From positions 9,618-73,617 of the forward strand of contig JBMNOU010000001.1 of NCBI GenBank assembly GCA_050943215.1: a DNA stretch of 64,000 bases. The letters are read 5' to 3'. Shown here one piece after another: positions 36,968 to 60,090 of this stretch; position 1 is the first letter of the stretch; every line of letters starts with the position of its first letter. Source of the stretch: Christensenellales bacterium. GTDB lineage: Bacteria; Bacillota; Clostridia; Christensenellales; SZUA-584. Under the pieces are notes generated by a model. The model saw nothing but the letters and a program-made list of their open reading frames with translations, ran no database searches and was not told where the DNA came from. The position numbers and the translations under genes were made by a program.

Positions 36968-37501
36968 ATGCGTTTATTTGTCGGGATTAAAACCGGGTGT
37001 GAAAATCACCTTGTTTCACTGCAGAATGAACTTAAAAAAATAGGGAAAGGGCATTTTACACAAAAAAACAATCTGCATATTACGCTAAAATTTTTGGGTG
37101 AGGTCCCGTCCTTTAAACTTAAAAGTATCACCGAAGCTATCTCCGAGCCAAAAGACAACCCCTTTTTGCTTGAATGCCAAGGAGTTAGTATTTTTAATAA
37201 AAACGGGATCATATCGGTCAAAGTAGCAGGAGAATTGGGTAAGCTTACCACACTTTACTCAACGCTTGAAATTGCGCTTGAAAAAAGAGGCTTTGAAAAG
37301 GAAAAAAGAGAATTTAGACCCCATATTACACTCGCGCGGAATTTCCGTATTACAGACGGATGTAATGTAGAAACAATACCGTACCGCTGCTATGGATTTA
37401 AAGTGGAAGAACTAATACTCTTTGAAAGCAGGCGGGATGCTGGTAAACTTGTATATGCGCCTTTGTTTATTCATAAACTTGCGGAACAAAAAAACAAATG
37501 A
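36968..37501 (+). CDS. thpR: RNA 2',3'-cyclic phosphodiesterase (2H family, ThpR/LigT)
   Basis: Two HxTx motifs (HITLKF, HITLAR) at the expected spacing. Confidence 0.85.
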   Translation: MRLFVGIKTGCENHLVSLQNELKKIGKGHFTQKNNLHITLKFLGEVPSFKLKSITEAISEPKDNPFLLECQGVSIFNKNGIISVKVAGELGKLTTLYSTLEIALEKRGFEKEKREFRPHITLARNFRITDGCNVETIPYRCYGFKVEELILFESRRDAGKLVYAPLFIHKLAEQKNK

Positions 37502-38356: not shown

Positions 38357-38401
38357 GTACATAGCCGCTGCTATTTATAAAGCAAAGCGGCTAAATCTAT
38401 T
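38357..38401 (+). repeat. Leader-hairpin repeat, copy 1 (orphan)
   Basis: TACATAGCCGCTGCT-[hairpin]-GGCTAAATCTATTT. Compare the copies at 39416 and 53464. Confidence 0.6.
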
Positions 38402-39311
38402 TTAGAATTTCAAGATAACGTGCCAACCGTTCCTCTAAATACTCCGAGATCATCTCCACCATAGGTGCGGCGTCCCTGTCCCTATAATAATTGTCAAAGC
38501 AAGCGTAGTAACGTTTTCTGTCGGAAAACTTGACGTCAATCGGCGGATAGCCTTGCTGCATCAACATTAAGTTAAGAACCAGCCTGCCCGTGCGCCCGTT
38601 GCCGTCTATGAAAGGATGGACGCCTTCAAATTCCAAATGGAACAAAGCGGCGTTATCAATAGGATGACGCTTTGTTTCTTTTTGTCCGGCAATAAGCTGC
38701 TCCATCTGCACTGGCACCAGATAAGGCTGTGGCGGCTCATGGTATGCGCCCATGATCGTAACTGGAATGCGGCGATATACCCCTTTGTCCTCCGGTCTGT
38801 CCATTAAAACAAGGGAATGGATGTCTTTGATTACCGATTCGGTTATCGCTGCTTTTTCTGATACTAAACGTTCCACATATAGAAAAGCGTCTCGATGGCC
38901 TACCGCCTCCAAGTGGTCTTTGAGTGGTTTTTGATCAATCGTTACACCCTCCAGCACCAAAGCCGTTTCCCGCAGAGTGAGGATGTTGCCTTCAATGGCG
39001 TTGGAGTTATAAGTAAACTCTACAAGAAATTCCTCTTGCAACCGCTTTAGTTCCCCTTGCGTCAGAGGGCGGCGTTTACTCAGTTCCGCTTTTAGGGCAT
39101 CCACACGGGTAAATATCGTGGCATATTCTTTCGGAACGATTTTACCACGCAAACTGCGCCCGTCAGCAGGCTTTATAGCATCAGCCGGTATGCGATAGGA
39201 ACGCCCCTCTTTGACTGCACCTTCAATTTTCCCTTGTTCACAAAGCAGCCGCACGCGCCGGTCTGATAGGTTCCATTGTTCCGCTGCTTGATTTACACTG
39301 ATATATTCCAT
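38397..39311 (-). CDS. HTH (MerR/excisionase-type) + Fic domain protein
   Basis: N-terminal ISVNQAAEQWNLSDRRVRLLCEQGKI HTH, the SNAIEGN inhibitory-helix motif, and the Fic core HPFIDGNGRTGR. Confidence 0.85.
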   Translation of the reverse strand: MEYISVNQAAEQWNLSDRRVRLLCEQGKIEGAVKEGRSYRIPADAIKPADGRSLRGKIVPKEYATIFTRVDALKAELSKRRPLTQGELKRLQEEFLVEFTYNSNAIEGNILTLRETALVLEGVTIDQKPLKDHLEAVGHRDAFLYVERLVSEKAAITESVIKDIHSLVLMDRPEDKGVYRRIPVTIMGAYHEPPQPYLVPVQMEQLIAGQKETKRHPIDNAALFHLEFEGVHPFIDGNGRTGRLVLNLMLMQQGYPPIDVKFSDRKRYYACFDNYYRDRDAAPMVEMISEYLEERLARYLEILK

Positions 39312-39415
39312 GAAATCACCTCAATTCTACATAAACAGTATAGTCCAAATCCGGAATGTTATCAACTTAAAATCGGGTTCATGCAACCAATTATTCCGTT
39401 TGTTGTTGTTTGCTA

Positions 39416-39461
39416 TACATAGCCGCTGCTGTCTTTAAGACAGAAGGGGCTAAATTTATTT
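39416..39461 (+). repeat. Leader-hairpin repeat, copy 2 (upstream of parA)
   Basis: TACATAGCCGCTGCT-[CTGTCTTtAAGACAG hairpin]-GGCTAAATTTATTT, then GGAAGGAGG and ATG 39479. Confidence 0.6.
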
Positions 39462-39478
39462 GGAAGGAGGAAGTAGCA

Positions 39479-40300
39479 ATGTCAATTGGCAAAGTCATTG
39501 CGATATGCAACCAAAAGGGCGGCGTTACCAAGACCACGACAACGGCGAATTTGGGCATTGGATTAGCTATGCAGGGGAAAAAGGTGCTGCTTGTGGATGC
39601 AGACCCGCAGGGCGATTTAACCACCGCGCTTGGTTGGCCGGACAATGAAAGCCTGCCCGTCACACTTTCCACCATCATGGATAAAATCATCCGTGACGAG
39701 GACTTTGAGCATTACGAGGGCATCTTGCACCACGATGAAGGCGTTGACCTGATACCGTCCAGTATTGAACTTTCCGGCATGGAAATGACACTTGTAACCG
39801 CCATGAGCAGGGAGTTTACCCTGCGCGAATATCTTGGCCGCATCAAACATGAGTATGATTATGTGATTATCGACTGTATGCCGAATTTGGGCATGATTAC
39901 GATCAACGCGCTTGCGGCGGCTGATTCGGTCATTGTACCTGTTCAGGCACAATATCTGCCTGCAAAGGGCATGACGCAGTTGATGAAAACCATCGGCAAG
40001 GTGAAAAAGCAGATTAACCCCGCTTTAAAAGTGGACGGAGTTTTATTGACCCTTGCTGATATGCGTACCAACCTTGCAAAAGCGACGGAACAAACCCTGC
40101 GTAAGCAGTACGGCAATGTCCTGAAAATCTACAAAACGCAGATTCCCGTAGCGGTTAAAGCCGCTGAAACCAGCGCAATGGGACAGAGTATTTACACCTA
40201 TGACAAAGGGAGTAAGGTTGCGCAGGCATATGCCGAGTTCACAAAGGAGGTGCTTGGCTGTGGCGAAAGAAATAAAGCTAAACCTGCCATCAGCAGATAG
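39479..40300 (+). CDS. parA: ParA-family partition ATPase
   Basis: Deviant Walker A NQKGGVTKTTT. The start is trimmed to ATG 39479. Confidence 0.9.
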   Translation: MSIGKVIAICNQKGGVTKTTTTANLGIGLAMQGKKVLLVDADPQGDLTTALGWPDNESLPVTLSTIMDKIIRDEDFEHYEGILHHDEGVDLIPSSIELSGMEMTLVTAMSREFTLREYLGRIKHEYDYVIIDCMPNLGMITINALAAADSVIVPVQAQYLPAKGMTQLMKTIGKVKKQINPALKVDGVLLTLADMRTNLAKATEQTLRKQYGNVLKIYKTQIPVAVKAAETSAMGQSIYTYDKGSKVAQAYAEFTKEVLGCGERNKAKPAISR

Positions 40301-41312
40301 TCTCTTTACCACACAGGAGGAACGGGACGACGCGAAGCTGGAACGGGTAATGGATTTGCCATTATCTGAAATCAGCGATTTTCCCGATCACCCGTTCAAG
40401 GTACGGATGGACGCTGAAATGCAGGAAATGGCCGAGAGCGTCAAGCAATACGGCGTGTTAGTTCCCGGCCTTGTGCGCCCCAAAGATGGCAGCGGATATG
40501 AGATGGTTGCCGGGCACCGACGCAAAACGGCAAGCAAATTGGCGCAGCGCGAAACCATGCCCTGCATTATCCGCAATTTAACGGACGATGAAGCGACCAT
40601 AATCATGGTGGACAGTAATTTGCAGCGTGAAAAAATCCTGCCATCTGAAAAGGCGTTCGCGTATAAGATGAAGCTGGATGCCATGAAGCGGCAAGCAGGT
40701 AGACCGAGTAAAGATAATTCTGCCCCAGTGGGGCAGGATTTCGAGGGAAAAACTTCGAGAGAATTATTAGCGGAAAAATCGCCTGACAGTCACTCTCAAA
40801 TCCAACGATATATCCGCTTAACCGAGTTAATCCCGGAACTACTGGAAATGGTGGATAATGCGGCGTTGGGCGAAAAACCGCAAGTTTCTATCGCCATGCG
40901 CCCCGCTGTGGAACTTTCCTACCTGCCGAAAGAACAACAGCAGTTTGTATTAAGCGCAATCCAAAGTGAAATCTGTACGCCATCCCATGACCAAACGCTT
41001 AGAATGCGGGAAAAATCAAAAGAAGGATTGTTGGATGAAGATGCGGTTTTATCCATCATGCAGGAGGAAAAGCCCAACCAGGCAGAGCAGTTCAAGCTGC
41101 CAAAGGAAAAACTCAGCAAGTTCTTTGCACCGGGGACGCCCGCGCAGAAAATAGAGGACACCATCATCAAAGCATTGGAGCTTTACCGCCAGCGCGAACG
41201 CAACCGGGACGCAAGGCAACGCACGTCAAGGGAGGACTCTGTTCTTTTACCCCGCCGCTATGGTTTGCCGCATTTCCCCTCTCCCAGACCCTCACCCCCT
41301 AAAACCAGCTAA
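40260..41312 (+). CDS. parB: ParB/Spo0J-like nuclease-domain protein
   Basis: ParB N-terminal domain (PFKVRMD...LVRP...YEMVAGHRRKTASKLA). The probable GTG start at 40260 (VAKEIKLNLP) overlaps the parA end. Confidence 0.8.
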   Translation: MAKEIKLNLPSADSLFTTQEERDDAKLERVMDLPLSEISDFPDHPFKVRMDAEMQEMAESVKQYGVLVPGLVRPKDGSGYEMVAGHRRKTASKLAQRETMPCIIRNLTDDEATIIMVDSNLQREKILPSEKAFAYKMKLDAMKRQAGRPSKDNSAPVGQDFEGKTSRELLAEKSPDSHSQIQRYIRLTELIPELLEMVDNAALGEKPQVSIAMRPAVELSYLPKEQQQFVLSAIQSEICTPSHDQTLRMREKSKEGLLDEDAVLSIMQEEKPNQAEQFKLPKEKLSKFFAPGTPAQKIEDTIIKALELYRQRERNRDARQRTSREDSVLLPRRYGLPHFPSPRPSPPKTS

Positions 41313-46886: not shown

Positions 46887-47561
46887 ATGGCATTGATAAG
46901 TGCATTTATCACCAATTTAGGCAAATACAACGAAGGCGAACTTGTAGGAAAGTGGCATGGCTTTCCTACCACAAAGGAAGCTATCATGCAGACATTTCGG
47001 AAAATCGGCATTGACGGTGTCCGTTACGAAGAATTTTTCATTACTGATTATGATTGTGAGATCGATGGGATTTACGACTGCTTGGGTGAACATGCCAATA
47101 TCGATGAATTAAACTATCTTGCTTCTAAACTGGACGATATGGCAAGCTATGAGATCGAGCATTATGAGTCAGCAATAGAGACAGGCGAATATAGCAGCAG
47201 CGTTAAAGATCTGATTAACCTTACCGACAACCTCCACTGCTTTGATTATTTGGAAGGCGTCACTAATGATTACGATCTCGGCTATTATTGGGTTGAAGAA
47301 AGCGGTTGCCACGATACCAAGAGCATGGGCAGCTTGACTAACTATATCGACTATGAGGGGTTTGGAAGGGATATTCGTCTTGAAGAAAGCGGTATATTTG
47401 CCGGCAAGGGCTATATCCGCAACAATGGTGATACGTTCAGCGAAGATTACGACGGAATGAACGTGCCGGATGAATACAAAGTATTTGCTTTACCAAAACC
47501 TAAACTCCTATCACGAAACGCCCCTAAACTAAAAGCAAAACATGATAGGGATGCAAGATAA
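46887..47561 (+). CDS. ardA: Antirestriction protein ArdA
   Basis: The N-terminus ISAFITNLGKYNEGELVGKWHGFPTT, the acidic overall composition and the roughly 220-aa length are typical of ArdA. Confidence 0.85.
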   Translation: MALISAFITNLGKYNEGELVGKWHGFPTTKEAIMQTFRKIGIDGVRYEEFFITDYDCEIDGIYDCLGEHANIDELNYLASKLDDMASYEIEHYESAIETGEYSSSVKDLINLTDNLHCFDYLEGVTNDYDLGYYWVEESGCHDTKSMGSLTNYIDYEGFGRDIRLEESGIFAGKGYIRNNGDTFSEDYDGMNVPDEYKVFALPKPKLLSRNAPKLKAKHDRDAR

Positions 47562-47593: not shown

Positions 47594-48980
47594 ACATATC
47601 AAGCAGCGTTGATCTGGGTAGTGTCAAATCAAGTTTGCAAAATCACTCCGATAAGAATGAATCAAGCGGCAGATAAAAAGGCGTCCTGAATGGACTGTGC
47701 ACTCAAATATGCCCTTGCGGACGACCAGTCTTCTGAATATTCCATGAGGTACGTGGCGACCAGCCGCAGGTAGGATGCAGGGTTCGGGAAGATACCGACC
47801 ACTCTGGTACGCCGCCGGATTTCTTTATTGAGTCTTTCCAGCATATTGGAACTGGAAGTCTTTCGAAAATCCAAAGCCGGGAAACAAAAGAACGCGAGGG
47901 AGTCTTCCAGTCCGTCTTCCAGTATTCGAATGGCCTGCGGAAACCGCTTCTCAAATTCTTCGACCAGCGCGGCAGCCCTTCTTCGGGCGGTCTCCATGTC
48001 CGGAGCAAGCCATATCTGTTTGAGCTTCCCTGCAAAAACCTGCTTGTCCCTATGCGGAACATGAACCAAAATGTTGCGCATAAAATGCACTTTGCAACGC
48101 TGCCAGCAAGCGCCGGGGAAGCTTTCGCGTATGGCGGCGACCAATCCGGCGTGGGCGTCCGAAATGACCAGGGACGGGGCGATAAGCCCTCGGCCTTTCA
48201 GCCTTTCAAAGAGCTGGGCATAGCTTTCACGGGATTCATCCAGCATAGGCTCGACGGCCAGCACCTCCCTTGATCCGGCTTCATTGACTCCACAGACAAG
48301 CAGGATCGCCATGCTAACAACACGCCCGTCGTAACGTACCTTTTCATACAGAGCATCCACCCAAAGCACGGGGTAACGGTTGCCTTCAAGCGACCGGTTG
48401 CAGAACGCCTCCACCTGCCCGTCCATTTCTTTGGCCGTGTTGCTTACCTGAGAGCGTGACAGGTTTTCAATTCCCAAACGCTTTGCCAGACGCTCCATTT
48501 TGCGGGTAGAAACGCCGTTTATGAAAGCCTCCTGAACCACCTGGATGAGCGCCGCTTCGCTTCGTTTTCGGTCACTCACAAAGAACGGAACATACCCGCC
48601 TTGCCGCATCTTGGGAACCATCAGATAGATCGTCCCCATCCTGGTGTCAAATCGTCTGGGGCGGTAGCCTGAACGATAGCCTTGACGGTCGGTGGTGTGC
48701 TGTGATTTTTCCGCTCCGATTCTTGTCGAAATCTCCGCTTCCATCAATTGATCGCATAGCCACTCCAGCATCGACAGCATCGGATCAGGTTCGCTCATGC
48801 ATTGCAGTAGTAATTCAGCCAGGTTTGTGGTAGTCTTTTTTTGAGCCATCGGTTTTTCTCCTTTTGAATGATTTGCTCGCACCATTCATTCTATCGGAGT
48901 GTCCGGTGGCTTTCCATATCCACATATAAATTGCAAACACTTTTGTACTCTATCTTGATCTGTAACGCTGCTTGATATGT
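47594..48980. mobile_element. IS256-family insertion sequence
   Basis: 17-bp perfect terminal inverted repeats, ACATATCAAGCAGCGTT (47594-47610) and its reverse complement (48964-48980). Imperfect similarity continues about 45 bp inward, including GTTTGCAA. A single mutator-type transposase lies inside. Total length is 1387 bp. Confidence 0.8.
47662..48849 (-). CDS. IS256-family (mutator-type) transposase
   Basis: About 395 aa with a typical N-terminus (AELLLQ...DPMLSMLEWLCDQLMEAE) and a DDE region (WVDALY..., VISDAHAGL..., CKVHFMRN). The start is trimmed to ATG 48849. Confidence 0.9.
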   Translation of the reverse strand: MAQKKTTTNLAELLLQCMSEPDPMLSMLEWLCDQLMEAEISTRIGAEKSQHTTDRQGYRSGYRPRRFDTRMGTIYLMVPKMRQGGYVPFFVSDRKRSEAALIQVVQEAFINGVSTRKMERLAKRLGIENLSRSQVSNTAKEMDGQVEAFCNRSLEGNRYPVLWVDALYEKVRYDGRVVSMAILLVCGVNEAGSREVLAVEPMLDESRESYAQLFERLKGRGLIAPSLVISDAHAGLVAAIRESFPGACWQRCKVHFMRNILVHVPHRDKQVFAGKLKQIWLAPDMETARRRAAALVEEFEKRFPQAIRILEDGLEDSLAFFCFPALDFRKTSSSNMLERLNKEIRRRTRVVGIFPNPASYLRLVATYLMEYSEDWSSARAYLSAQSIQDAFLSAA

Positions 48981-49034
48981 GGGTAAAATGTCATAATCAG
49001 CGATATAATTTAAAAGCATCGGGAGCTAATATTT

Positions 49035-50162
49035 TTATTCCTTACAACTCAAATCAAAGGCGAGGCGGAACCCTTTGTTATTGTTGTTCTGGTCGTATAA
49101 AACTAATCGGGCGTCGGCTTTTGGCATATATGCTCTACCAAACTCCACAGCGGCTGAAACAGGGCATGCGGGAAAAACATGAACAACCGCGTCTTGTCCG
49201 TGATACTCTCTTATCAAACGAAAAAGTTCGCGGTACTTTCCACGCAATGTTGCAAGGTGCTCACGGTTTTTTATGTAATCGTTGCTTGGGTTTTGATGCG
49301 TGATGTTCCAGATTGAAATGTCGTTACCAAGAACATTTTGAATACGGTCGTCTGTAATATTGTCACTGAGTGAAAGCTTGACCGCTACCGCTGAGGATTT
49401 TGTAGTCGGTGTGGTTATCTCATATCTAATCTGCGAATCATCATCAAGCCATGCCCAAGTATCTGGTTCCCTATGCTTCTGGAACACATCCACCTCGGTG
49501 ATATCACCAAACAGCATTCCAAGCCTAATCAAAAGCGGTATCGGAGCAATCGCAAACAGCAAAATTTTTTCACTTCTGCTCTGCTCTTTCAAAATATTTA
49601 TTTCTTGCCTGAATTTTTCCTGCAATTGAGCCCATTCACTTGACCAAAATTGACTTATGTCATCATAGAAAGCGGTATTATTGGGGTTAAGGTCAATTGG
49701 ATAGCGTGGTGCGATAAGTTTTGCCGCCCTGACAGCTTCATTGATTTTTTCGTTCGTTATCGTCGGCTGATTATCGCCAATTTTTGAGGTGTACTTTACC
49801 ACCAAGGCGTGTTCGTTTTGAAGGGCCAATAATTGCTCCCGGACTTTTTGCTCATGATTATTCTTTATACTGTGCAACCTCTCAACTGTGTAAAATTCTG
49901 GAATCTTATCTTTATCAACCTTGGTATGGCAAGTCGGGCAAAGCAGAATGATGTTATCAATATCTCCAGCATATTTTTTTGATTCGACAGAACCCCGTGT
50001 TCCGTCCTCACTGTCGGCGATGATATGGGCATACTCTTTAACATTTATTTCTGAACGCGAGAATTTATCGTAATCAAGAGGCTCACAGCACAAGGAGCAT
50101 AACCCTCCGCACTTAAAATACAGTTCCCATTTATCTTGTGTCTTCAGGTTTGTTTTTGACAT
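49035..50162 (-). CDS. HNH endonuclease fused to SAVED-like sensor domain (Cap5-like CBASS effector)
   Basis: N-terminal Cys-rich HNH (CSLCCEPL...EYAHIIADSEDGTRG...NIILLCPTCHTKVD). The roughly 250-aa C-terminus has an LLFAIAPIPLLIRLGMLFGD-type segment consistent with SAVED. It is the last gene of the operon. Confidence 0.75.
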   Translation of the reverse strand: MSKTNLKTQDKWELYFKCGGLCSLCCEPLDYDKFSRSEINVKEYAHIIADSEDGTRGSVESKKYAGDIDNIILLCPTCHTKVDKDKIPEFYTVERLHSIKNNHEQKVREQLLALQNEHALVVKYTSKIGDNQPTITNEKINEAVRAAKLIAPRYPIDLNPNNTAFYDDISQFWSSEWAQLQEKFRQEINILKEQSRSEKILLFAIAPIPLLIRLGMLFGDITEVDVFQKHREPDTWAWLDDDSQIRYEITTPTTKSSAVAVKLSLSDNITDDRIQNVLGNDISIWNITHQNPSNDYIKNREHLATLRGKYRELFRLIREYHGQDAVVHVFPACPVSAAVEFGRAYMPKADARLVLYDQNNNNKGFRLAFDLSCKE

Positions 50163-50168
50163 CGCTAT

Positions 50169-50828
50169 TCACCTCTTATCCAATTCAGCTATGATTGATT
50201 CAAAGTCATCCTTGTATCGTTCATAGAGTGAACTTACCTTAAGCTCGTTGATTTTCTCTCTATGGCAATCTCTGTAGCGCTTGCCAGATTGACAGGGGCA
50301 TTGAAAATGTCCTTTCAGGTTTTCTCTGAACAGACAAACCAATAAAGCGTATGCAACTTTGATATCAGTGGTTTCAAACAATTCACAGTAATAATCCAAC
50401 AGCCCCTCGACTCCGTGCTTGTGTTCTCCGAACGGCAAGTATTTGTGCTTTCGGTAAAATAAGAAACCGCAGAGATAGGTATCCAAGTACTTGGCCAAAA
50501 AAGCAAGCAAGCTTGGATGTTCCTGCAAAAACGCAGCTATTGCCGTATCAACTTCCAAACAGAGCTGACCGTTTGCGTATACATGTCCCTTGTAATTGTT
50601 AGCCCGGATTTTACCGTCTGTGTTTTTTGCTGTTGGGATATCTTCAGGGAAGCCATTGGGAACAAAAATTTCAAGCGAAAAGTAGTTTTCAAATATTTCA
50701 TTTTCAAACTGATTGCAGATTTTATATTTGCCGATAAATTTCAAACCGCCATCAATCTCGGTTTTTGTCAACAGCGGCTGTTGTACTAACAGTATTTCAA
50801 CCTCCTCCAGTACCGCAGCTCGCAACAT
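50169..50828 (-). CDS. E2 (UBC)-like protein with C-terminal SEC-C zinc motif
   Basis: SLEIFVPNGFPEDIP followed by GHVYANGQLCLE mirrors the UBC (f.fp..YP..pP ... HPN...G.iCL) active-site layout. The C-terminal CPCQSGKRYRDCH is a SEC-C motif. Confidence 0.65.
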   Translation of the reverse strand: MLRAAVLEEVEILLVQQPLLTKTEIDGGLKFIGKYKICNQFENEIFENYFSLEIFVPNGFPEDIPTAKNTDGKIRANNYKGHVYANGQLCLEVDTAIAAFLQEHPSLLAFLAKYLDTYLCGFLFYRKHKYLPFGEHKHGVEGLLDYYCELFETTDIKVAYALLVCLFRENLKGHFQCPCQSGKRYRDCHREKINELKVSSLYERYKDDFESIIAELDKR

Positions 50829-50829
50829 A

Positions 50830-52065
50830 TCACCGCCTATATGGTTTGGGCTGATTGACTCCTGTGATTATTGTGGGAACAGATTTCGTTGCATTAAGGT
50901 TTAGGTTAGCATATATGCGTTTAGTAGCCTCTTCGCCAAAGCTCTTTTGAAGTGATGTGAATTTGTCCGCTGAATCCGCTCGGTCAAATCCAAAATCGCT
51001 TTTTATCCATTCGACCCATTTGAAAAACGCCTTTGCGCGTGCGTTTCCATCTTCAGTCCAACGCTCCGCAAAATTTTCATATGGGTTGACAGGATTGCAT
51101 AGGTGCCAGCCATCACTGTCGCGTTTGATAATCACAGCATTTCTTTGTGCCAGCCTTTCCGCTGAATAAGCATAGAAGTCTTGGTTTAGAGAGGAATATT
51201 GACTCAATTCTTCGACAACTGCTTGGAGCAGCTCTTTAACAGAGGCATTATACAACTTTTTCTCGGCAGCGATTTGTGCCACAAGAACTGTAATTATAAT
51301 TGAAATTGGTCTGTAAGCGTAATCGGGCTGTCTGTCGAAACGAACATCACGATGCCGCTTGAAAAGCTGAATCACTCGTTGTAACGAGGATTTTAAAAGT
51401 GGTTCAGGAACGGCCTCAATGGAAGCATAAGCTTTCTTTTCAACAAGTATCCGCCGCTGATATTCCGAAACGGCTTGGAGGTAAGGGGTGTTAATATTTT
51501 TGAACCAGTCAACCAAACCGTGCGAATTGCCTGTCGACCAGTCATATGTATCTCCGTCTTTGTCAAAGTCCGTTATTGCTATTGCTTTTTTTGCAATTGA
51601 AAGGGGAATATTTTTGAACACGATTTTGTTGATTATTTCATTCTCCTCGTGTACACATGGTAGAACATCCATATGAAAGCCTACGCCGTCCGTCGGCGCA
51701 TAATTCAATGTCCAACAACGCCGCCCTTCGTTTGGGTCAAGCAAGTTTTTATGATATTGACTTTTGTCAAGGCATTTCCCAACCGACTTTTTTAATACTC
51801 GGGGTTTGAGGATAAGCTTATCGTCCGAAGATTGCGCTACAAGATCAATATCAAAGTCGGCATCTCTCCCCTCCCGATAAGGACGTATGACCGTGCCGAA
51901 CGCAAACGACCCTTGTGTGTAAACATCTGTTGCTACACCATCCTCGGTTAAGCATTTTGCTACCGCCTCATAGTGAGATTTCGCCAAATCATATTGTGTT
52001 GGTGTGATGTCTATCTGCTTATACAATTCCTCAGTCACGGAATCGAAGTTCAAAATTTTTTCCAT
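50830..52065 (-). CDS. CD-NTase/SMODS-like nucleotidyltransferase
   Basis: Pol-beta NTase triad context: YTQGSFAFGTVIRP, DADFDIDLV, and GFHMDVLP. The 411-aa length and the genomic context with E2 and HNH-SAVED also fit. Confidence 0.75.
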   Translation of the reverse strand: MEKILNFDSVTEELYKQIDITPTQYDLAKSHYEAVAKCLTEDGVATDVYTQGSFAFGTVIRPYREGRDADFDIDLVAQSSDDKLILKPRVLKKSVGKCLDKSQYHKNLLDPNEGRRCWTLNYAPTDGVGFHMDVLPCVHEENEIINKIVFKNIPLSIAKKAIAITDFDKDGDTYDWSTGNSHGLVDWFKNINTPYLQAVSEYQRRILVEKKAYASIEAVPEPLLKSSLQRVIQLFKRHRDVRFDRQPDYAYRPISIIITVLVAQIAAEKKLYNASVKELLQAVVEELSQYSSLNQDFYAYSAERLAQRNAVIIKRDSDGWHLCNPVNPYENFAERWTEDGNARAKAFFKWVEWIKSDFGFDRADSADKFTSLQKSFGEEATKRIYANLNLNATKSVPTIITGVNQPKPYRR

Positions 52066-52075
52066 CGGTATCTCC

Positions 52076-53176
52076 TTAATCTCTTATGATGTTTAATAAG
52101 TCGTAGTAGAAAAAAGTTCTGTTACGGCTCTTGTTGTCGGTGTAAAGTATCTGAGCTTGGACTAATGCGTTCAAATATCGGTTAATCGTCGCCGGAGGGA
52201 TTTGCGTTTCTTTTGCAATCGTGTTTGCGTTAATGATTGGGAAACGGAATAGTAAATCAATAATCTCCGTCATTTGATTACTACGAACAAGGCCTGATGC
52301 TTTGCTCAAGTGCTCATTATAGAGTTTGTTAATATCAGAAATGATTCTAATATATTTTTTGCATTGACTCGTAACTATCTGTAAAAAGAAGTTTATCCAT
52401 TCAGACCATTGCCCCTTTTCTCTGATATTGTTCAGGAGCGTATAATACTTCATTTTATCGCGCTCCAGAGCCTCACTGATGAAAAAGCAAGGCATATCAA
52501 TTTGTTCGGAAGCGTAAAGGTAAAGCGGGATTAGGATTCGTCCAACACGGCCATTGCCATCTAAAAAAGGATGTATAGTTTCAAACTGAGCATGAACAAT
52601 GGCGGTGCGAACAAGTGGACGTAGGATGTCTTTAGGTTCGAGTATATAATTGATGAGATTGTCCATTAACTCAGGCACTTTTTCAAATATAGGAGGGGTA
52701 TAGGTTATCTCATGTGGGCTACCTACTTTTCCAATGTAATTCTGCTGTGTTCTGAATATGCCAACTTCTTGGTTTTGTCGCCGTACTTTGCCTTTCATAA
52801 GAATTTTGTGAATTTCAAGGATGAAATCCTTGCTCATTTTGTCACGCTTGAGGAAATTATACCCCATTATAGCGGCAGTATTGTAATTGATAATCTCGAC
52901 AAGGTTCGCATCTTTATCATCGGGAACGACCTGATTGATTAGCACGCCATCAAGTGTCGCTTGTGTTCCCTCTAACATAGATGAAGCAAGAGCTTCTTTT
53001 TGCTGTAATGTTGGCAAGAACCAGTGCTGGCTAAGCTTGCTATCCTTAATTTTCTCTTTATAAACTTCAAGCTGAGCTGTAGCATCTATAAGTGAATCGA
53101 AAAATAGTTTCGGCTTTATATAATCTGCACCAAGTGGCAACACCATTGGTTCAAAAGCAATTTTCTGGCTTTTCAT
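52076..53176 (-). CDS. Fic-domain protein (Fic_N inhibitory helix + Fic core + C-terminal wHTH-like region)
   Basis: HPFLDGNGRVGR core and SSMLEGT ((S/T)xxxE(G/N)) motif. The C-terminal IAKETQIPPATINRYLNALVQAQIL is HTH-like. The probable start is ATG 53176 after GAGGAG; the track begins at TTG 53182. Confidence 0.85.
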   Translation of the reverse strand: MKSQKIAFEPMVLPLGADYIKPKLFFDSLIDATAQLEVYKEKIKDSKLSQHWFLPTLQQKEALASSMLEGTQATLDGVLINQVVPDDKDANLVEIINYNTAAIMGYNFLKRDKMSKDFILEIHKILMKGKVRRQNQEVGIFRTQQNYIGKVGSPHEITYTPPIFEKVPELMDNLINYILEPKDILRPLVRTAIVHAQFETIHPFLDGNGRVGRILIPLYLYASEQIDMPCFFISEALERDKMKYYTLLNNIREKGQWSEWINFFLQIVTSQCKKYIRIISDINKLYNEHLSKASGLVRSNQMTEIIDLLFRFPIINANTIAKETQIPPATINRYLNALVQAQILYTDNKSRNRTFFYYDLLNIIRD

Positions 53177-53205
53177 AAACAACTCCTCTTTTCAAAGCAT
53201 GATTT

Positions 53206-53248
53206 ATTGTAGCATATATAGAATCAAAATTCAACTATTTTGATTCTA
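53206..53248 (-). promoter_or_regulatory. Promoter of the fic-CBASS operon with overlapping palindromic operator
   Basis: On the minus strand: TTGAAT (53234-53229), 17 nt, then TACAAT (53211-53206). A perfect palindrome, TAGAATCAAAAT-tcaact-ATTTTGATTCTA (53219-53248), covers the -35 and the spacer. Confidence 0.55.
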
Positions 53249-53463
53249 ATTTATAATTTTTATGCTCTATAGCCTCACAAAACAAAAAATATGAGGATAG
53301 CTACACCTTCATAATAGTACTTGGATTAGTTGTGGGTTAAGGAGTATGGGGAGTGCAGCAATCAGCATCTATGTATTTTACTTTGCATTTTATAAATTCC
53401 ACCGTGGTATTATCGTAAAAATCCAGTCTTATATTGTAACTACAAATTATTTTCAGCTTTTTC

Positions 53464-54844: not shown

Positions 54845-55174
54845 ATGAGAAAACGAAATGTTCGTATCCAATTCTGGCTTGATAAAAAAGAGGCCGAAGC
54901 CTTCAATAAAATAGTAAAGCGCAGCGGCCAATCCCGCGAGGTGTATCTGCGCCATATCATAAGCGGCCTTGTTCCCACTGACGTACCGCCCCCCGATTAC
55001 TACACCATGATGAGGGAACTCCACGCCATCGGCACGAACCTGAATCAGATCGCGCAAAAAGCCCATGTGCTAAACGCGATTGACGTCAACCGCTACGACG
55101 AGAACGCCGCCCTGCTGAAAAAAGCAATCGTAGGAATTACCAATGCCGTCATGCTGCCGAGAAAAATCGGATAG
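54845..55174 (+). CDS. mobC: MobC-type relaxosome accessory protein
   Basis: RNVRIQFWLDKKEAEAFNKIVKRSG (RHH-like) and GTNLNQIAQKAH motifs. The start is trimmed to ATG 54845. Confidence 0.8.
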   Translation: MRKRNVRIQFWLDKKEAEAFNKIVKRSGQSREVYLRHIISGLVPTDVPPPDYYTMMRELHAIGTNLNQIAQKAHVLNAIDVNRYDENAALLKKAIVGITNAVMLPRKIG

Positions 55175-56601
55175 TGGCTGTCACTTCCATTTGGAGCGTC
55201 AAGGGCTGGCTTGGTAAGGTGCTTGTCTATACAGAGAACCCCGACAAGACCGAGAACCCCGCCTATTATGAAAAGCAAGGCATGACGGCTGCGCAGGCGC
55301 AGGGGCTTTCGGACGTCATAGACTACGCTTCCCAAACCCGCAAGACACAGCTTACCGATGAAAACGCCGAAATCCTCCGGCATTACGTCACCGGGCTGAA
55401 CTGCGCTCCCGAGACTGCCCGCGACGAGATGATTGCCGCAAAGAAAAAATTCGGCAAAGAAAATGGCGTCGTCGTTTATCACGGCATACAGTCCTTTTCC
55501 TCCAAAGATTTGCAGGCGGGATTGACCCCCGACATGGCGCATGAAATCGGCGTAAAGTTAGCCAAGAGGCTTTGGGGCGATCAATACCAAGTCGTTGTCA
55601 CCACACATTTGGATAAAGCCAACCACCTTCATTCTCATTTTGTAGTCAACACGGTTTCGTGGGTAGACGGCATTCGCTACCATCGCACTGAGCGGGATTA
55701 CTACAATATGCAAATCGAGTCCGACAAGCTATGCCGTGAATATGGCCTGTCCGTCATCGAAGAACCCAAGCGCGGCAAATCCAAACATTACGGTGAATGG
55801 CGGTCCGAAAAAGACAGCCAACCCACCTACCGTAGTTTGGTCAAAGCCGACGTCGATCAGGCCATATTGGAATCCATGACCGAGCGGCAGCTTTGGGACA
55901 ATCTTTATAAAAAAGGCTATCATATCAAATTCGGTAAAGACATCACCCTGCGCCCTCCGGGTAAAGACAGGGGTTTGAAGCTATATCGCAACTTTGGCGA
56001 GGATTATTCGATTGAGAGCATCCGAAATCGCATATTGGCAAATATGCGTCCGCAGCGGATCGTCCTCCCGGCAGAGAGACCGCCCAAGCGGATATACCTT
56101 ATTGGCAAACTAAATACCGCCCGTAAGATTACAGGGCTTCGCGCCCTGTATTTTTCTTATCTCTACAAAATGGGTGTTCTCCCGAAAAAGCGGAAGCAAT
56201 CACCAAACCGCATATATTTTTTGTTCCGCGAGGATATTCGCTTTATTCAAAATATCTCAAAAGAAACCCGTTTGTTGGTGACGCATGGCATCGACACCGC
56301 CGAGCAGCTTACCGACCATAAGGACAACTTAACGACTGAAATCATTTCCCTGTACGACGAACGGAAGTGTTTGCGGTATCAAATGCGAAATATCCATGAC
56401 GATGAAAAGCTGGCGGCAATCAAAACCGACATTGCCGCTCTATCCGCTAAAATCGGTGAACTGCGAAAGGATGTGAGGTTATGTGAGGATATTGAAAAGC
56501 GCTCTATAGATATGAAAGAGAAAATCCGCAGAGCCGCCGAGGACGAAAAAAACAAGGGAAAGGAGATGAGCCGACATGAATCATTCAGGGGACGCCGCTG
56601 A
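55174..56601 (+). CDS. Relaxase/mobilisation nuclease (MobA/VirD2 family)
   Basis: His-triad THLDKANHLHSHFVVN, an N-terminal relaxase fold and a C-terminal coiled coil. The GTG start overlaps the mobC stop. Confidence 0.9.
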   Translation: MAVTSIWSVKGWLGKVLVYTENPDKTENPAYYEKQGMTAAQAQGLSDVIDYASQTRKTQLTDENAEILRHYVTGLNCAPETARDEMIAAKKKFGKENGVVVYHGIQSFSSKDLQAGLTPDMAHEIGVKLAKRLWGDQYQVVVTTHLDKANHLHSHFVVNTVSWVDGIRYHRTERDYYNMQIESDKLCREYGLSVIEEPKRGKSKHYGEWRSEKDSQPTYRSLVKADVDQAILESMTERQLWDNLYKKGYHIKFGKDITLRPPGKDRGLKLYRNFGEDYSIESIRNRILANMRPQRIVLPAERPPKRIYLIGKLNTARKITGLRALYFSYLYKMGVLPKKRKQSPNRIYFLFREDIRFIQNISKETRLLVTHGIDTAEQLTDHKDNLTTEIISLYDERKCLRYQMRNIHDDEKLAAIKTDIAALSAKIGELRKDVRLCEDIEKRSIDMKEKIRRAAEDEKNKGKEMSRHESFRGRR

Positions 56602-58055: not shown

Positions 58056-58241
58056 ATGAAAGAAGAACAGAAAATGATCACGCTTGACGAATACGAGGAA
58101 GGCGCGGTAATCGAAGGGCTGAACAAAGTCCGCACCGAACAGCTTGAAAAAGACGGAAAAGCTGATTTTGTCAGTGACCTTATGCTGAAAATTCTGCATA
58201 CACCGCAGAAGAAAGTAAAGGTGCGGGATGAAGCGCGATAA
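58056..58241 (+). CDS. Small conserved ICE protein (61 aa), paralogue of 37908..38078
   Basis: MITLDEYEEGAVIEGLNKVRT...QKKVKV aligns with the 37908 product. Confidence 0.5.
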   Translation: MKEEQKMITLDEYEEGAVIEGLNKVRTEQLEKDGKADFVSDLMLKILHTPQKKVKVRDEAR

Positions 58242-60090
58242 CCCGAAGCAAACCCTTCTCCTGTTTGCTTTCGGCATTATTCCGGTGGTATGGGCGGCCT
58301 TATTGACCGCCCCCGCCATCGCCGGAGGACTTCCCGAAATTCTGCAAAACCTGACGGCGGCATTAAATAACCCATTGCAAATTGAGTGGTGTGAGGACAG
58401 TTTAAAAACTGTCCTTCTTTTTATTATCGCTTACGGTTTGGGGATCGGGATATATTTTTCAACCCGGCGTAACACAAGACCGGGGGAAGAACACGGAAGC
58501 GCCAAATGGGGCGACGTCCGTGCCATCAACCGTAAATATGCGGACAAGCGGTTTTGCGAAAACAAGATTCTTACGAAACATGTACGCATTGGTTTTGACA
58601 CGCACAAGCACAGGCGCAATATGAACGTTTTGGTGTGTGGGGGCAGTGGCTCAGGCAAAACTCGATTTTATTGCAAGGTAAACGCCATGAATTGCAACAC
58701 CTCAATGGTGATTTTAGACCCCAAAGGGGAAATCGCCCGCGACACAGGACTGTTGCTTAAAAAGAGCGGCATGGAGGTAAAGGTGCTTGATCTTATCAAT
58801 ATGTGGCGCAGCCATTGTTACAATCCGTTTGTGTATTTAGAAAATGACAACGATGTGCAGCGTTTGGTGACAAACCTATTCAAAAGCACTACACCCAAGG
58901 GAGCGCAAAGCCAAGATCCGTTTTGGGATACCGCAGCCAGCATGTTGCTTCTGGCACTCGTTTTCTATTTGAAATACGAAGCGCCGCCGAACGAACAGAA
59001 TTTTTCGATGGTCATGGAAATGCTTCGGGCGGGCGACGTGCGCGAGGATGACGACAGCTATCAATCACCTCTTGACGAACTCTTTGATCGTTTGGAAATG
59101 CGAAACTCCGACCATATCGCGGTGAAATATTACCGCGACTATCGAAGCGGTTCGGGCAAGACCCTCAAAAGCATTCAGATCACGCTGGCCGCAAAATTGG
59201 AAAAATTTAATTTAAAAAGTCTTGCCGCCCTCACCGTTACCGACGAACTGGACCTTATGAGCATTGGCGAGAAAAAGACCGCGCTGTTTATCATCATTCC
59301 CGATAACGACAGCTCGTTCAACTTTCTCGTATCCATCCTCTACACCCAACTATTTCAGCAGCTTTTTTACAGTGCCGATCATAAACACGGCGGTTCGCTG
59401 CCGGTACACGTCCATTTCTTAATGGACGAATTTGCGAACGTCAGTCTGCCAGACGACTTTGACAAGATACTCTCCGTTATGCGCTCACGCGGCGTATCGG
59501 TCAGCATCATCCTGCAAAATATTGCCCAGCTCAGAGCATTATTTGAAAAGCAGTGGGAATCAATCATGGGTAACTGCGATGAATTTCTCTACTTGGGGGG
59601 CAACGAAACTTCAAGTCACAAGCTGGTCAGCGAATCCCTTTTAGGTAAGTCAACTTTGGATATAAACACATACGGAAAATCCACAGGGCGGAACGGAAAT
59701 TATAGCACCAACTATCAGCTATCGGGGCGGGAGCTTATGACCCCGGATGAAGTGCGGATGCTGGACAACCGTTACGCCTTATTATTCATACGCGGCGAGC
59801 GTCCCATCATGGACGAAAAATTTGACATCCTGCGTCACCCGCACGTAGGAGATACAGCAGACGGCAAGGCCGGACGGTTTATCCACGGTGAAGTCACGAA
59901 CTCCGTCGCCTCCCTTGTCTTTGACGAGGACATTGACCCGGCGGGTCTGCCGGAACCGGATATCACGGACGCAGACATTGAACTGCTGTCCGAGGAAGAT
60001 TTGGAAGAACTATTTAACAAGGAGGAACCATCCAATGAAGAAAAACATGAAACCGGCCCAAAGGCAACCCGTGACAAACGGCGGCCGTAA
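58228..60090 (+). CDS. Type IV coupling protein (VirD4/TraG family)
   Basis: Two N-terminal TM helices, Walker A VCGGSGSGKT and Walker B FLMDEFAN. Confidence 0.9.
   Translation: MKRDNPKQTLLLFAFGIIPVVWAALLTAPAIAGGLPEILQNLTAALNNPLQIEWCEDSLKTVLLFIIAYGLGIGIYFSTRRNTRPGEEHGSAKWGDVRAINRKYADKRFCENKILTKHVRIGFDTHKHRRNMNVLVCGGSGSGKTRFYCKVNAMNCNTSMVILDPKGEIARDTGLLLKKSGMEVKVLDLINMWRSHCYNPFVYLENDNDVQRLVTNLFKSTTPKGAQSQDPFWDTAASMLLLALVFYLKYEAPPNEQNFSMVMEMLRAGDVREDDDSYQSPLDELFDRLEMRNSDHIAVKYYRDYRSGSGKTLKSIQITLAAKLEKFNLKSLAALTVTDELDLMSIGEKKTALFIIIPDNDSSFNFLVSILYTQLFQQLFYSADHKHGGSLPVHVHFLMDEFANVSLPDDFDKILSVMRSRGVSVSIILQNIAQLRALFEKQWESIMGNCDEFLYLGGNETSSHKLVSESLLGKSTLDINTYGKSTGRNGNYSTNYQLSGRELMTPDEVRMLDNRYALLFIRGERPIMDEKFDILRHPHVGDTADGKAGRFIHGEVTNSVASLVFDEDIDPAGLPEPDITDADIELLSEEDLEELFNKEEPSNEEKHETGPKATRDKRRP

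Follow-up and report, generated by a model that had tools for sequence, protein, structure and literature searches.

A SoFic-family Fic protein with a candidate operator heads an E2-CBASS cassette in a clostridial mobile element

Introduction

CapW (a WYL-wHTH protein), CapH/CapP (an XRE-HTH protein paired with a metallopeptidase) and the BrxR-type regulators are encoded by DNA-binding genes that head CBASS or other defence operons, with a palindromic operator lying over the promoter, and they precede varied defence cargoes. The protein described here, a Fic enzyme with a C-terminal winged helix-turn-helix (wHTH), has its nearest known match in SoFic of Shewanella oneidensis (SO_4266/MloA; PDB 3EQX, 3ZCN) and in EcSofic. 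SoFic has already been described as a one-gene system that protects against phages (bioRxiv 10.1101/2022.05.11.491447), and members of its family are toxic and confer defence by a single gene (PMC12249575). For one family member, both binding to its own promoter and AMPylation of EF-Tu are on record (bioRxiv 10.64898/2026.07.09.737422); SoFic binds, as a dimer, to the 100 bp that immediately precede its gene (10.64898/2026.07.09.737422). CccR of Yersinia pseudotuberculosis is a further Fic-wHTH protein, both toxin and transcription factor (PMC9755527), and the SoFic preprint counts it among transcriptional (auto-)regulators (10.64898/2026.07.09.737422). We liken it to the present protein on account of the shared fold, a Fic enzyme with a wHTH, although CccR is a T6SS-secreted effector of a Gram-negative species and has no defence-operon context.

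The CBASS genes of the present locus also have a described counterpart. The SmCdnG-SmE2 system of Serratia marcescens is an E2-CBASS that likewise combines a long clade-G-like CD-NTase, an E2-only protein and an HNH-SAVED Cap5 effector (PMC12948482). Described E2-CBASS operons have three genes; Fic as a fourth, promoter-proximal member was not found in the searchable literature, where searches for Fic together with CBASS, SMODS or AMPylation brought up no account of such a linkage. Here we analyse such an arrangement in a 64,000-nt stretch of a Christensenellales genome (contig JBMNOU010000001.1; hereafter the window). Under an ordinary reading it would be a routine SoFic annotation beside a known E2-CBASS.

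Results

The product of fic (52076..53176, minus strand) is a class II Fic AMP-transferase of 366 aa that belongs to the SoFic family and consists of Fic_N and Fic domains followed by a C-terminal winged helix. The start codon is the ATG at 53176, where the same MK(S/N/Q) residues begin the homologues; a start at the TTG at 53182 is unlikely. Pfam recognised the Fic (1.2e-18) and Fic_N (9e-13) domains, the PADLOC SoFic model matched end to end (344.6 bits, E=2e-103), and a sequence search of the PDB gave matches to SoFic entries. An AlphaFold2 (AF2) model (pLDDT 78.5, pTM 0.79) was superposed at full length by Foldseek on SoFic 3ZCN (TM 0.79, E=4.8e-14). The two proteins have in common a dimerisation helix with an N-terminal inhibitory helix, the Fic core and the C-terminal wHTH, as well as the catalytic and inhibitory motifs. 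The identity to SoFic is only ~23%, and the score against the NCBIfam SoFic equivalog model is 155 bits where the cut-off is 550 bits. The product is thus a member of an already known family and not an equivalog, and because it lies so far below the cut-off and shares so little identity with SoFic, its target may differ from EF-Tu. SoFic is a stand-alone gene and EcSofic is followed by an AS1-like small gene, whereas the window fic is the first gene of an E2-CBASS operon and has no AS1-like gene downstream.

The catalytic loop HPFLDGNGRVGR (aa 202-213; 52538..52573, minus strand) fits HxFx(D/E)GNGRxxR and is invariant in an alignment of 12 homologues with 62-93% identity, in agreement with the canonical loop reported in the original prediction. 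That prediction had also assigned the N-terminal motif to class II/III. The motif, SSMLEG (aa 65-70; 52967..52984, minus strand), fits (S/T)xxxE(G/N), and in the alignment with SoFic its E69 is matched to the SSEIEN motif, whose inhibitory glutamate is E73 (PDB 3ZEC is the E73G mutant). S65, E69 and G70 are invariant in the homologue alignment; the region is of low confidence in the AF2 model, which predicts an N-terminal helix at aa 26-44. Because the motif is N-terminal, the protein belongs to class II and not to class III. The conserved glutamate in turn predicts an enzyme that is auto-inhibited at rest, so that the earlier description of Fic as enzymatically competent holds for the intact catalytic loop and needs qualification for the resting state.

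The AF2 model also bore out the proposed C-terminal wHTH (aa 300-366; 52079..52279, minus strand). The segment has the H-strand-H-H-strand-strand topology of a winged helix, with elements at H300-311, E314-316, H317-323, H328-340 and E354-356, and the superposition on SoFic covers the domain. Pfam gave sub-threshold matches only in this region (HTH_24, TrmB and SoFic-like_C). As modelled, Fic joins an intact catalytic core to a winged helix of the DNA-binding type. No WYL, XRE or metallopeptidase domain was found by Pfam, unlike in CapW and CapH/CapP. A second Fic gene in the window (38397-39311, minus strand; HTH_17 plus Fic, loop HPFIDGNGRTGR) has only 24% identity to the first Fic in the core; the original prediction had called it unrelated.

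Upstream of fic, a GAGGAG ribosome-binding site (53183..53188, minus strand) lies 6 nt ahead of the ATG. A consensus scan predicted a sigma-70-type promoter (53206..53234, minus strand) with a -35 hexamer TTGAAT (53234-53229), a 17-nt spacer and an extended -10 TGCTACAAT (53214-53206), which is a match to the consensus only; homologous fic loci retain TTGAC(T/A) and TATAAT-like hexamers. The -35 hexamer is enclosed by a palindromic operator candidate, TAGAATCAAAA-N8-TTTTGATTCTA (53219..53248), with half-sites AATCAAAA/TTTTGATT. The palindrome occurs once in the window, and none of 100 shuffles gave one. A palindrome at -70 to -40 from the fic start codon, overlapping the -35, was present in 21/21 close Fic homologues; its two arms change together across these loci, and position and architecture are the same whatever the downstream cargo. 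Palindromes comparable to that of the window also lie upstream of distant SoFic-family genes, where the arm of the best inverted repeat upstream has a mean length of 9.8 nt, as against 6.8 nt in shuffled sequence (n=75). An A/T-rich, promoter-proximal operator is what would be expected from the binding of SoFic to its own promoter. The palindrome first pointed out by the original prediction therefore stands as a conserved operator-like element over the -35 of the only recognisable promoter ahead of fic-CdnG-E2-Cap5. No second regulator gene was found between 53177 and 53517. The consensus scan also returned promoter-like matches inside fic, and promoters there could add Fic-independent CBASS transcription.

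Downstream of fic and on the same minus strand lie a 411-aa CdnG-like CD-NTase (50830..52065; PADLOC Cyclase 6.6e-93; Pfam DncV-like_NTFase and SMODS), a 219-aa E2-only, Cap2-like protein (50169..50828; PADLOC E2 6.9e-48) and a 375-aa Cap5 effector with an HNH endonuclease and a SAVED sensor (49035..50162; PADLOC Effector/Endonuclease 3.9e-119; Pfam SAVED 5e-53 and HNH). No E1 or JAB ORF was found in 48886-53176. A CD-NTase, an E2-only protein and a cyclic-nucleotide-sensing effector, with neither E1 nor JAB, make this an E2-CBASS (type II short).

The junction between fic and CdnG is very tight. The fic stop TAA (52078-52076) is followed by 10 nt, GGAGATACCG, and then by the CdnG ATG at 52065, and the AAGGAGA ribosome-binding site of CdnG overlaps the stop (junction TAAGGAGATACCG, 52066..52078, minus strand, with the ATG directly after), just as had been noted earlier. 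The junction is arranged identically in three related loci (L001, L099 and L178), and no terminator-like site was found on the minus strand at the junction. When the window was compared with L001, DNA identity was 88-98% from ~-100 of fic through the Cap5 stop and ~35-40% outside. The fic-CdnG-E2-Cap5 block recurs in different flanking contexts, at least three by one count and at least 7 by another. The promoter, fic, CdnG, E2 and Cap5 thus form one discrete four-gene cassette in a mobile element. Searches of plasmids and phages for an annotated copy of the cassette returned nothing close, and a scan of viral contigs gave one 61% homologue, without CBASS.

Members of the same Fic subfamily immediately precede an E2-E1-JAB cassette and two CdnG-E2 clades that lie far from each other in phylogeny, which exceeds what would be expected of simple neighbourhood in a defence island and hints at a functional link. 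Other cargoes behind the same Fic and operator, likewise candidate defence cassettes, are PDC-M48, PDC-M36-like and DUF4417, and at four loci (L009, L018, L019 and L187) the cassette that accompanies the subfamily contains neither a CD-NTase nor an E2. In crude neighbour-joining, midpoint-rooted trees, the non-CBASS cargoes nest inside the Fic tree and the two Fic-linked CdnG clades lie far apart, leaving a co-diversification of Fic and CdnG from a single ancestor unsupported. Two broader associations were rejected: Fic is not a general E2-CBASS component, as ~70/80 CdnG relatives have E2 and an effector and no Fic, and CBASS is not a general neighbour of SoFic, as 0/80 distant SoFic genome loci have CBASS within 6 kb.

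Fic-less CBASS operons with upstream regions of their own (L180, L121, L116 and L119) are nested in both Fic-linked CdnG clades. In L180, homology to the window begins at the CdnG ribosome-binding site. In the sister (SLATT) clade, Fic and CdnG are separated by 230-255 nt; no second Fic operator was found before CdnG in this spacer, which holds a different and highly conserved leader of ~190 nt that is retained in the Fic-less L121. An Rfam search assigned this leader to no family, and RNAalifold gave a structure with almost no covariation. Homology of L112 and L124 to L115 spans the operator to the SLATT stop only. Fic is thus a facultative and not a dedicated CBASS component. Because the palindrome precedes every close Fic homologue examined, whatever the cargo, and is absent from the upstream region of sister-clade CBASS, the operator candidate belongs to Fic, not to CBASS.

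Discussion

We think it fairly probable that this SoFic-family Fic provides a second layer of defence, independent of CBASS, and in addition furnishes CBASS with a promoter and its control. In the mechanism that we envisage, a Fic dimer would place its C-terminal wHTH on the palindrome over the -35 and probably repress its own promoter, as suggested by family precedent and by the conservation of the operator. The N-terminal glutamate helix would keep the catalytic domain auto-inhibited; infection would relieve the inhibition, and Fic would then AMPylate a conserved host factor. Both steps are drawn by homology, EF-Tu being the target of SoFic. The fic gene and its promoter would, in this lineage, have become fused directly ahead of CdnG-E2-Cap5, giving one mobile four-gene cassette. 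CBASS probably shares a transcript with fic, made from the promoter that Fic controls, given the 10-nt junction, the absence of a terminator and the boundaries of the cassette. If Fic does bind the palindrome, it would set CBASS transcription, and since it likely represses its own promoter and is encoded first in the cassette, Fic probably sets the amount of CBASS that is made. As an independent layer of this kind, Fic would not be a CBASS-specific enzyme. The repeated placement of the subfamily ahead of E2-containing systems tells against this view, as it hints at a functional link for which the view has no need.

An alternative that we consider unlikely is that the Fic-wHTH protein is mainly a regulator in the manner of CapW or BrxR, serving regulation rather than killing: the Fic domain would serve as the sensor or the switch, through auto-AMPylation or an altered dimer state, for instance, and infection would free the operator and induce CBASS. 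The position of the operator over the -35 of the sole evident promoter of the four-gene block would suit such a role, as would the fact that the same Fic and operator head several co-directional defence-type cassettes, as BrxR/CapW-type regulators do; a Fic enzyme of Coxiella is reported to couple DNA binding with (de)AMPylation (PMC10628234). Against this, conservation of the catalytic motif is strict, as would be expected of an active enzyme that acts on a target in trans, and members of the family have proved toxic and protect on their own (PMC12249575; 10.1101/2022.05.11.491447). Both clades, moreover, include Fic-less CBASS members, and the leader of sister-clade CBASS, which carries no Fic operator, persists without Fic. 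The steady tie to CBASS by which a CapW-type regulator would be known is lacking, as Fic occurs in only two CdnG clades, is facultative in both, and takes the operator with it. The window fic also differs from CapW, CapH/CapP and BrxR in being co-directional and translationally adjacent to its cargo, not divergent, and in encoding a conserved toxin-type enzymatic domain.

It is quite improbable that fic and CBASS are expressed independently, as neighbouring defence genes in the cargo region of an ICE whose proximity has no functional meaning. Defence genes do cluster, CBASS clades without Fic exist, and the 80 other genomes show no CBASS near SoFic-family genes; however, the 10-nt junction with its ribosome-binding site over the stop leaves no space for a promoter or terminator. 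The cassette, too, is bounded exactly by the fic promoter at one end and by the Cap5 stop at the other, the homology between L112/L124 and L115 is likewise limited to the stretch from operator to SLATT stop, and the block recurs across flanking contexts (at least 7).

Fic enzymes modify hydroxyl side chains, and this counts against the idea that Fic stands in for E1. A replacement of the E1 adenylation missing from E2-only CBASS was rejected, as CdnG-E2 ligation is spontaneous (PMC12948482). That Fic controls CBASS post-translationally by AMPylating CdnG, E2 or Cap5 is highly improbable: the close translational proximity of fic to CdnG and the repeated pairing of Fic with E2-containing systems would speak for it, but nothing marks these three proteins as substrates, EF-Tu is the target known for the family, the ligation requires no adenylating partner (PMC12948482), most E2-CBASS relatives (~70/80) have no Fic, and the same subfamily also stands beside cassettes without CD-NTase or E2, a variability of cargo that argues against a CBASS-specific substrate.

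Every sequence feature that the original prediction listed was confirmed at its coordinates. The predicted AMPylating regulator of the defence operon survives in part: co-regulation in cis is likely, in view of the operator and the tight block, and AMPylation of CBASS proteins is unsupported, in view of the variable cargo. The architecture is not new, being that of SoFic.

In a wider reading, tentative and in our judgement doubtful, SoFic-like Fic-wHTH genes, spread across the Clostridia as one subfamily, would serve as a portable "leader module" that is self-repressed, induced by infection, and repeatedly fused to swappable immune cargo, with a preference for the E2 type. The module would comprise promoter, operator and fic; the E2-type cargoes seen behind it are the two unrelated CdnG-E2 clades and the E2-E1-JAB cassette. 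If this reading were true, activation of Fic would free the operator and co-induce the cargo, coupling an AMPylation-based abortive response to CBASS, and Fic-wHTH proteins would make up a novel class of regulators for defence operons, comparable to CapW and BrxR.

Natural pairs of loci with and without Fic (L115 and L121; the window and L180) are ready comparisons of what Fic contributes. If the Fic-wHTH protein controls the promoter of CdnG-E2-Cap5, it would represent a family of regulators with no earlier link to CBASS, and nature would offer an example of two layers of abortive infection, AMPylation and cyclic-nucleotide signalling, that share one promoter and travel together as a cassette on the conjugative elements of Clostridia in the gut.

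A SoFic-family protein heads the CBASS cassette

The fic gene (52076-53176, minus strand) encodes 366 residues from an ATG at 53176, a start position common to its close homologues. Two motifs were read from the sequence, the Fic loop HPFLDGNGRVGR (residues 202-213, nt 52538-52573, minus strand) and the inhibitory motif SSMLEG (residues 65-70, nt 52967-52984, minus strand), and neither varies across 12 aligned homologues (62-93% identity), in keeping with the original prediction of a canonical loop and an N-terminal inhibitory helix. E69 lines up with SSEIEN, where Shewanella oneidensis SoFic has its inhibitory glutamate, and since the motif is N-terminal, the protein falls into class II; its resting state would be expected to be auto-inhibited. 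Pfam places Fic and Fic_N above threshold, and HTH_24, TrmB and SoFic-like_C on the tail only at sub-threshold scores. In an AlphaFold2 model (pLDDT 78.5, pTM 0.79), residues 300-366 adopt the winged-helix topology that had been proposed for this tail.

The full model superposes on SoFic (PDB 3ZCN) with a TM score of 0.79, and the PADLOC SoFic model covers the whole protein (E=2e-103). Against the stricter NCBIfam SoFic equivalog model the protein scores 155 bits, below the 550-bit cut-off, and is hence a family member and not an orthologue. A 2022 defence-system screen identified SoFic as a single-gene anti-phage system (10.1101/2022.05.11.491447), and the defence member EcSofic is toxic and its targets are AMPylated during infection (PMC12249575). 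SoFic AMPylates EF-Tu in a dimer-dependent manner, and the dimer also binds the 100 bp directly upstream of its own gene (10.64898/2026.07.09.737422). CccR, a Fic-wHTH protein, is both toxin and transcription factor (PMC9755527), and is termed a transcriptional (auto-)regulator in the SoFic preprint (10.64898/2026.07.09.737422). Given these precedents, proteins that join a Fic enzyme to a DNA-binding tail are already well established and no novelty; the gene itself is a further member of the SoFic family.

Genomic setting

Downstream of fic, all on the minus strand, lie a CdnG-like CD-NTase (50830-52065), an E2-only protein (50169-50828) and an HNH-SAVED Cap5 (49035-50162), a trio that is an E2-CBASS (type II short; PMC12948482). 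As first described, 10 nt separate the fic stop from the CD-NTase ATG, and the ribosome-binding site AAGGAGA overlaps the stop. An identical CD-NTase is on record from a Christensenellales MAG.

The block sits within a conjugative element, flanked on one side by an IS256-type transposase, ArdA, a SpaA adhesin and ParA/ParB, and on the other by DUF3991-Toprim and two ORFs (55174-56601 and 58228-60090) whose sequences read as a putative relaxase and a putative coupling protein. The IS256/Mutator-family transposase (47662-48885, minus strand) directly follows Cap5 and adjoins the ArdA anti-restriction gene (46887-47561, plus strand), which makes the defence cassette an insert of cargo among the backbone genes of the element. 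A second class II Fic gene (38397-39311, minus strand; 304 aa), with an N-terminal HTH_17 and the canonical motifs SNAIEG and HPFIDGNGRTGR, differs from the first in architecture and has 24% core identity to it; it is divergent from ParA/ParB (39410-41312), and its site is probably the edge of the element. In L001, a homologous locus, and its relatives, the Fic-CBASS cassette likewise adjoins ParA/ParB, with one more weak Fic-domain ORF on the downstream side. We also note a LigT-like 2H phosphoesterase gene (36968-37501, plus strand; 177 aa) just outside the element, among apparently chromosomal neighbours (metK, a recD2-like helicase, an aminotransferase and a CDF transporter). Acb1, an anti-CBASS enzyme, is also a 2H phosphoesterase, but nothing here ties this gene to the CBASS.

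A conserved palindrome at the predicted fic promoter

The palindrome TAGAATCAAAA-N8-TTTTGATTCTA (53219-53248), present once in the window (0 of 100 shuffles), encloses the -35 of the predicted fic promoter (TTGAAT, with an extended -10 TGCTACAAT at 53214-53206, minus strand; here as elsewhere, promoters and terminators were called by consensus match). In 21 of 21 close loci in which the fic start was located (Fic 60-93% identical to the query), the same palindromic element occupies -70 to -40 with the -35 TTGAC at its center, whatever the downstream cargo. Its arms co-vary (ACAATCAAA/TTTGATTGT in L001, GAACCAAAA/GGTTC in L018, ATGTTCAAAA/TTTTGAACAT in L019), as those of an operator bound by a dimer should. 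In 75 remote loci of the SoFic family (30-40% identity, drawn from many phyla), the best upstream arm averages 9.8 nt, versus 6.8 nt in shuffles; in 37 of the 75, the arm reaches 9 nt or more and none of the locus's own 30 shuffles surpasses it, and many of these palindromes enclose TTGAC. On this evidence, the palindrome is best taken as a candidate auto-operator of Fic, a family trait and no CBASS element.

Exchangeable cargo behind the same Fic

Behind close Fic homologues that carry the same operator, the genes are mostly co-directional: PDC-M48 and PDC-M13 (L187), a PDC-M36-like gene (L009), a DUF4417 three-gene set (L018 and L019), PDC-M48A-like, MBL-fold and E2-E1-JAB genes (L192) and small ORFs (L190), with a type III restriction-modification system (L020) and an integrase (L193) in convergent orientation. 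In the Fic tree (all trees are neighbour-joining with midpoint rooting), the clade of the window groups with L187 and L009 and not with the other CBASS-linked clade. The cargo is therefore exchangeable, which is compatible alike with an independent defence gene and with a generic leader or regulator module; that Fic would be a signal-responsive regulator in the manner of CapW or BrxR seems rather unlikely to us. The sample, about 12 independent contexts, is small and selected by length of sequence, so what looks like a preference for E2-type cargo should be taken as a lead and no statistic.

In L192 (3437-8634; Fic 68% identical, same operator), a 755-aa E2-E1-JAB fusion comes last and the MBL-fold gene is PDC-M48B/LmuA-like; here the Fic leader may front a defence system based on ubiquitin-like conjugation. 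L187 has a related PDC-M48 cassette that lacks an E1/E2/JAB gene. The DUF4417 set (L018 7163-8637, L019 7258-8911; Fic 60-62% identical; from a Phascolarctobacterium MAG and an Oscillospiraceae MAG) consists of DUF4417 and two small unknown proteins directly downstream of Fic and co-directional with it. PADLOC gives no match for this conserved set, which may be a defence cassette not yet described.

Fic and CBASS travel together in two clades

Two surveys speak against a general link between Fic and CBASS. Across 80 reference-genome loci of the SoFic family, no CD-NTase, E2 or Cap5 gene lies closer than 6 kb, and in a set of 80 metagenomic loci collected by means of a CdnG alignment, Fic lies upstream of CdnG in only two clades. 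In that of the window, CdnG is 78-93% identical, the effector is Cap5 and the 10-nt junction is kept; in a human-gut clade, CdnG is only ~38% identical to the window's, SLATT replaces Cap5, and Fic is 66-67% identical. The two lie far apart in the CdnG tree and each has Fic-less members. L180 (CdnG 77% identical) has its own promoter-like sequence and leader in place of fic, its homology to the window starting at the ribosome-binding site; L121, with a type I restriction gene upstream instead, is 96% identical to the gut-clade locus L115 starting 40 nt past the fic-stop position; and L116 and L119 also lack fic. Fic is thus facultative in both clades.

Between about -100 of the fic ATG and the Cap5 stop, the DNA of the window and of L001 is 88-98% identical, falling to ~35-40% outside; L112 and L124 match L115 at 80%, and this match is confined to the stretch between the operator and the SLATT stop. 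From these sharp limits we conclude that promoter, fic and CBASS travel as one cassette, and its occurrence in at least seven flanking contexts makes it improbable that the adjacency is meaningless.

In L178 (3490-8041, compared with 49035-53300 of the window), DNA identity is 90-94% for fic and 86-94% for Cap5 and only 66-82% for CdnG-E2, a mosaic suggesting that the CdnG-E2 pair, as a unit, was replaced by recombination or has evolved faster. The gut clade carries a ~190-nt leader upstream of the CD-NTase that is far more conserved than coding DNA (L015 7216-7450; L115 4731-4967; Fic-less L121 4740-4967; also L112, L124, L125, L127 and L183), with near-invariant blocks GGATTGAGnGnCAACTCAATCC, TTGTTAATGACCAATAGATGATTAACAA, TATATCATCTATTAATCC and AAATAGGTCATTTTTGTTT. 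RNAalifold gives a three-way junction and a hairpin ending in a U-run, with almost no covariation; the leader has no Rfam family and could serve an E2-CBASS as cis-regulatory RNA or as operator cluster.

A probable self-repressed toxin that lends its promoter

The original prediction cast Fic as an AMPylating regulator of the defence operon. Fic-dependent transcriptional control in cis is plausible; the enzymatic part is unsupported, and AMPylation of the CBASS proteins is very improbable, as exchangeable cargo argues against a CBASS-specific substrate. A role as stand-in for the missing E1 was ruled out because CdnG and E2 ligate spontaneously.

We found no report of a fic-headed E2-CBASS in the searchable literature, and to our knowledge it is absent from published CBASS classifications. 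What appears new is the composite cassette, with a SoFic-type fic as promoter-proximal gene of an E2-CBASS, and the recruitment of one Fic subfamily to two unrelated CdnG-E2 clades and an E2-E1-JAB cassette, neither of which we found described. From sequence, comparison and family precedent, we infer with reasonable though not high confidence that this is a SoFic-type, self-repressed Fic toxin that here supplies the promoter of a co-transcribed E2-CBASS: Fic would repress its own promoter by binding DNA, the E2-CBASS would be transcribed together with fic from that promoter, and the target of Fic would probably be a conserved host factor such as EF-Tu.
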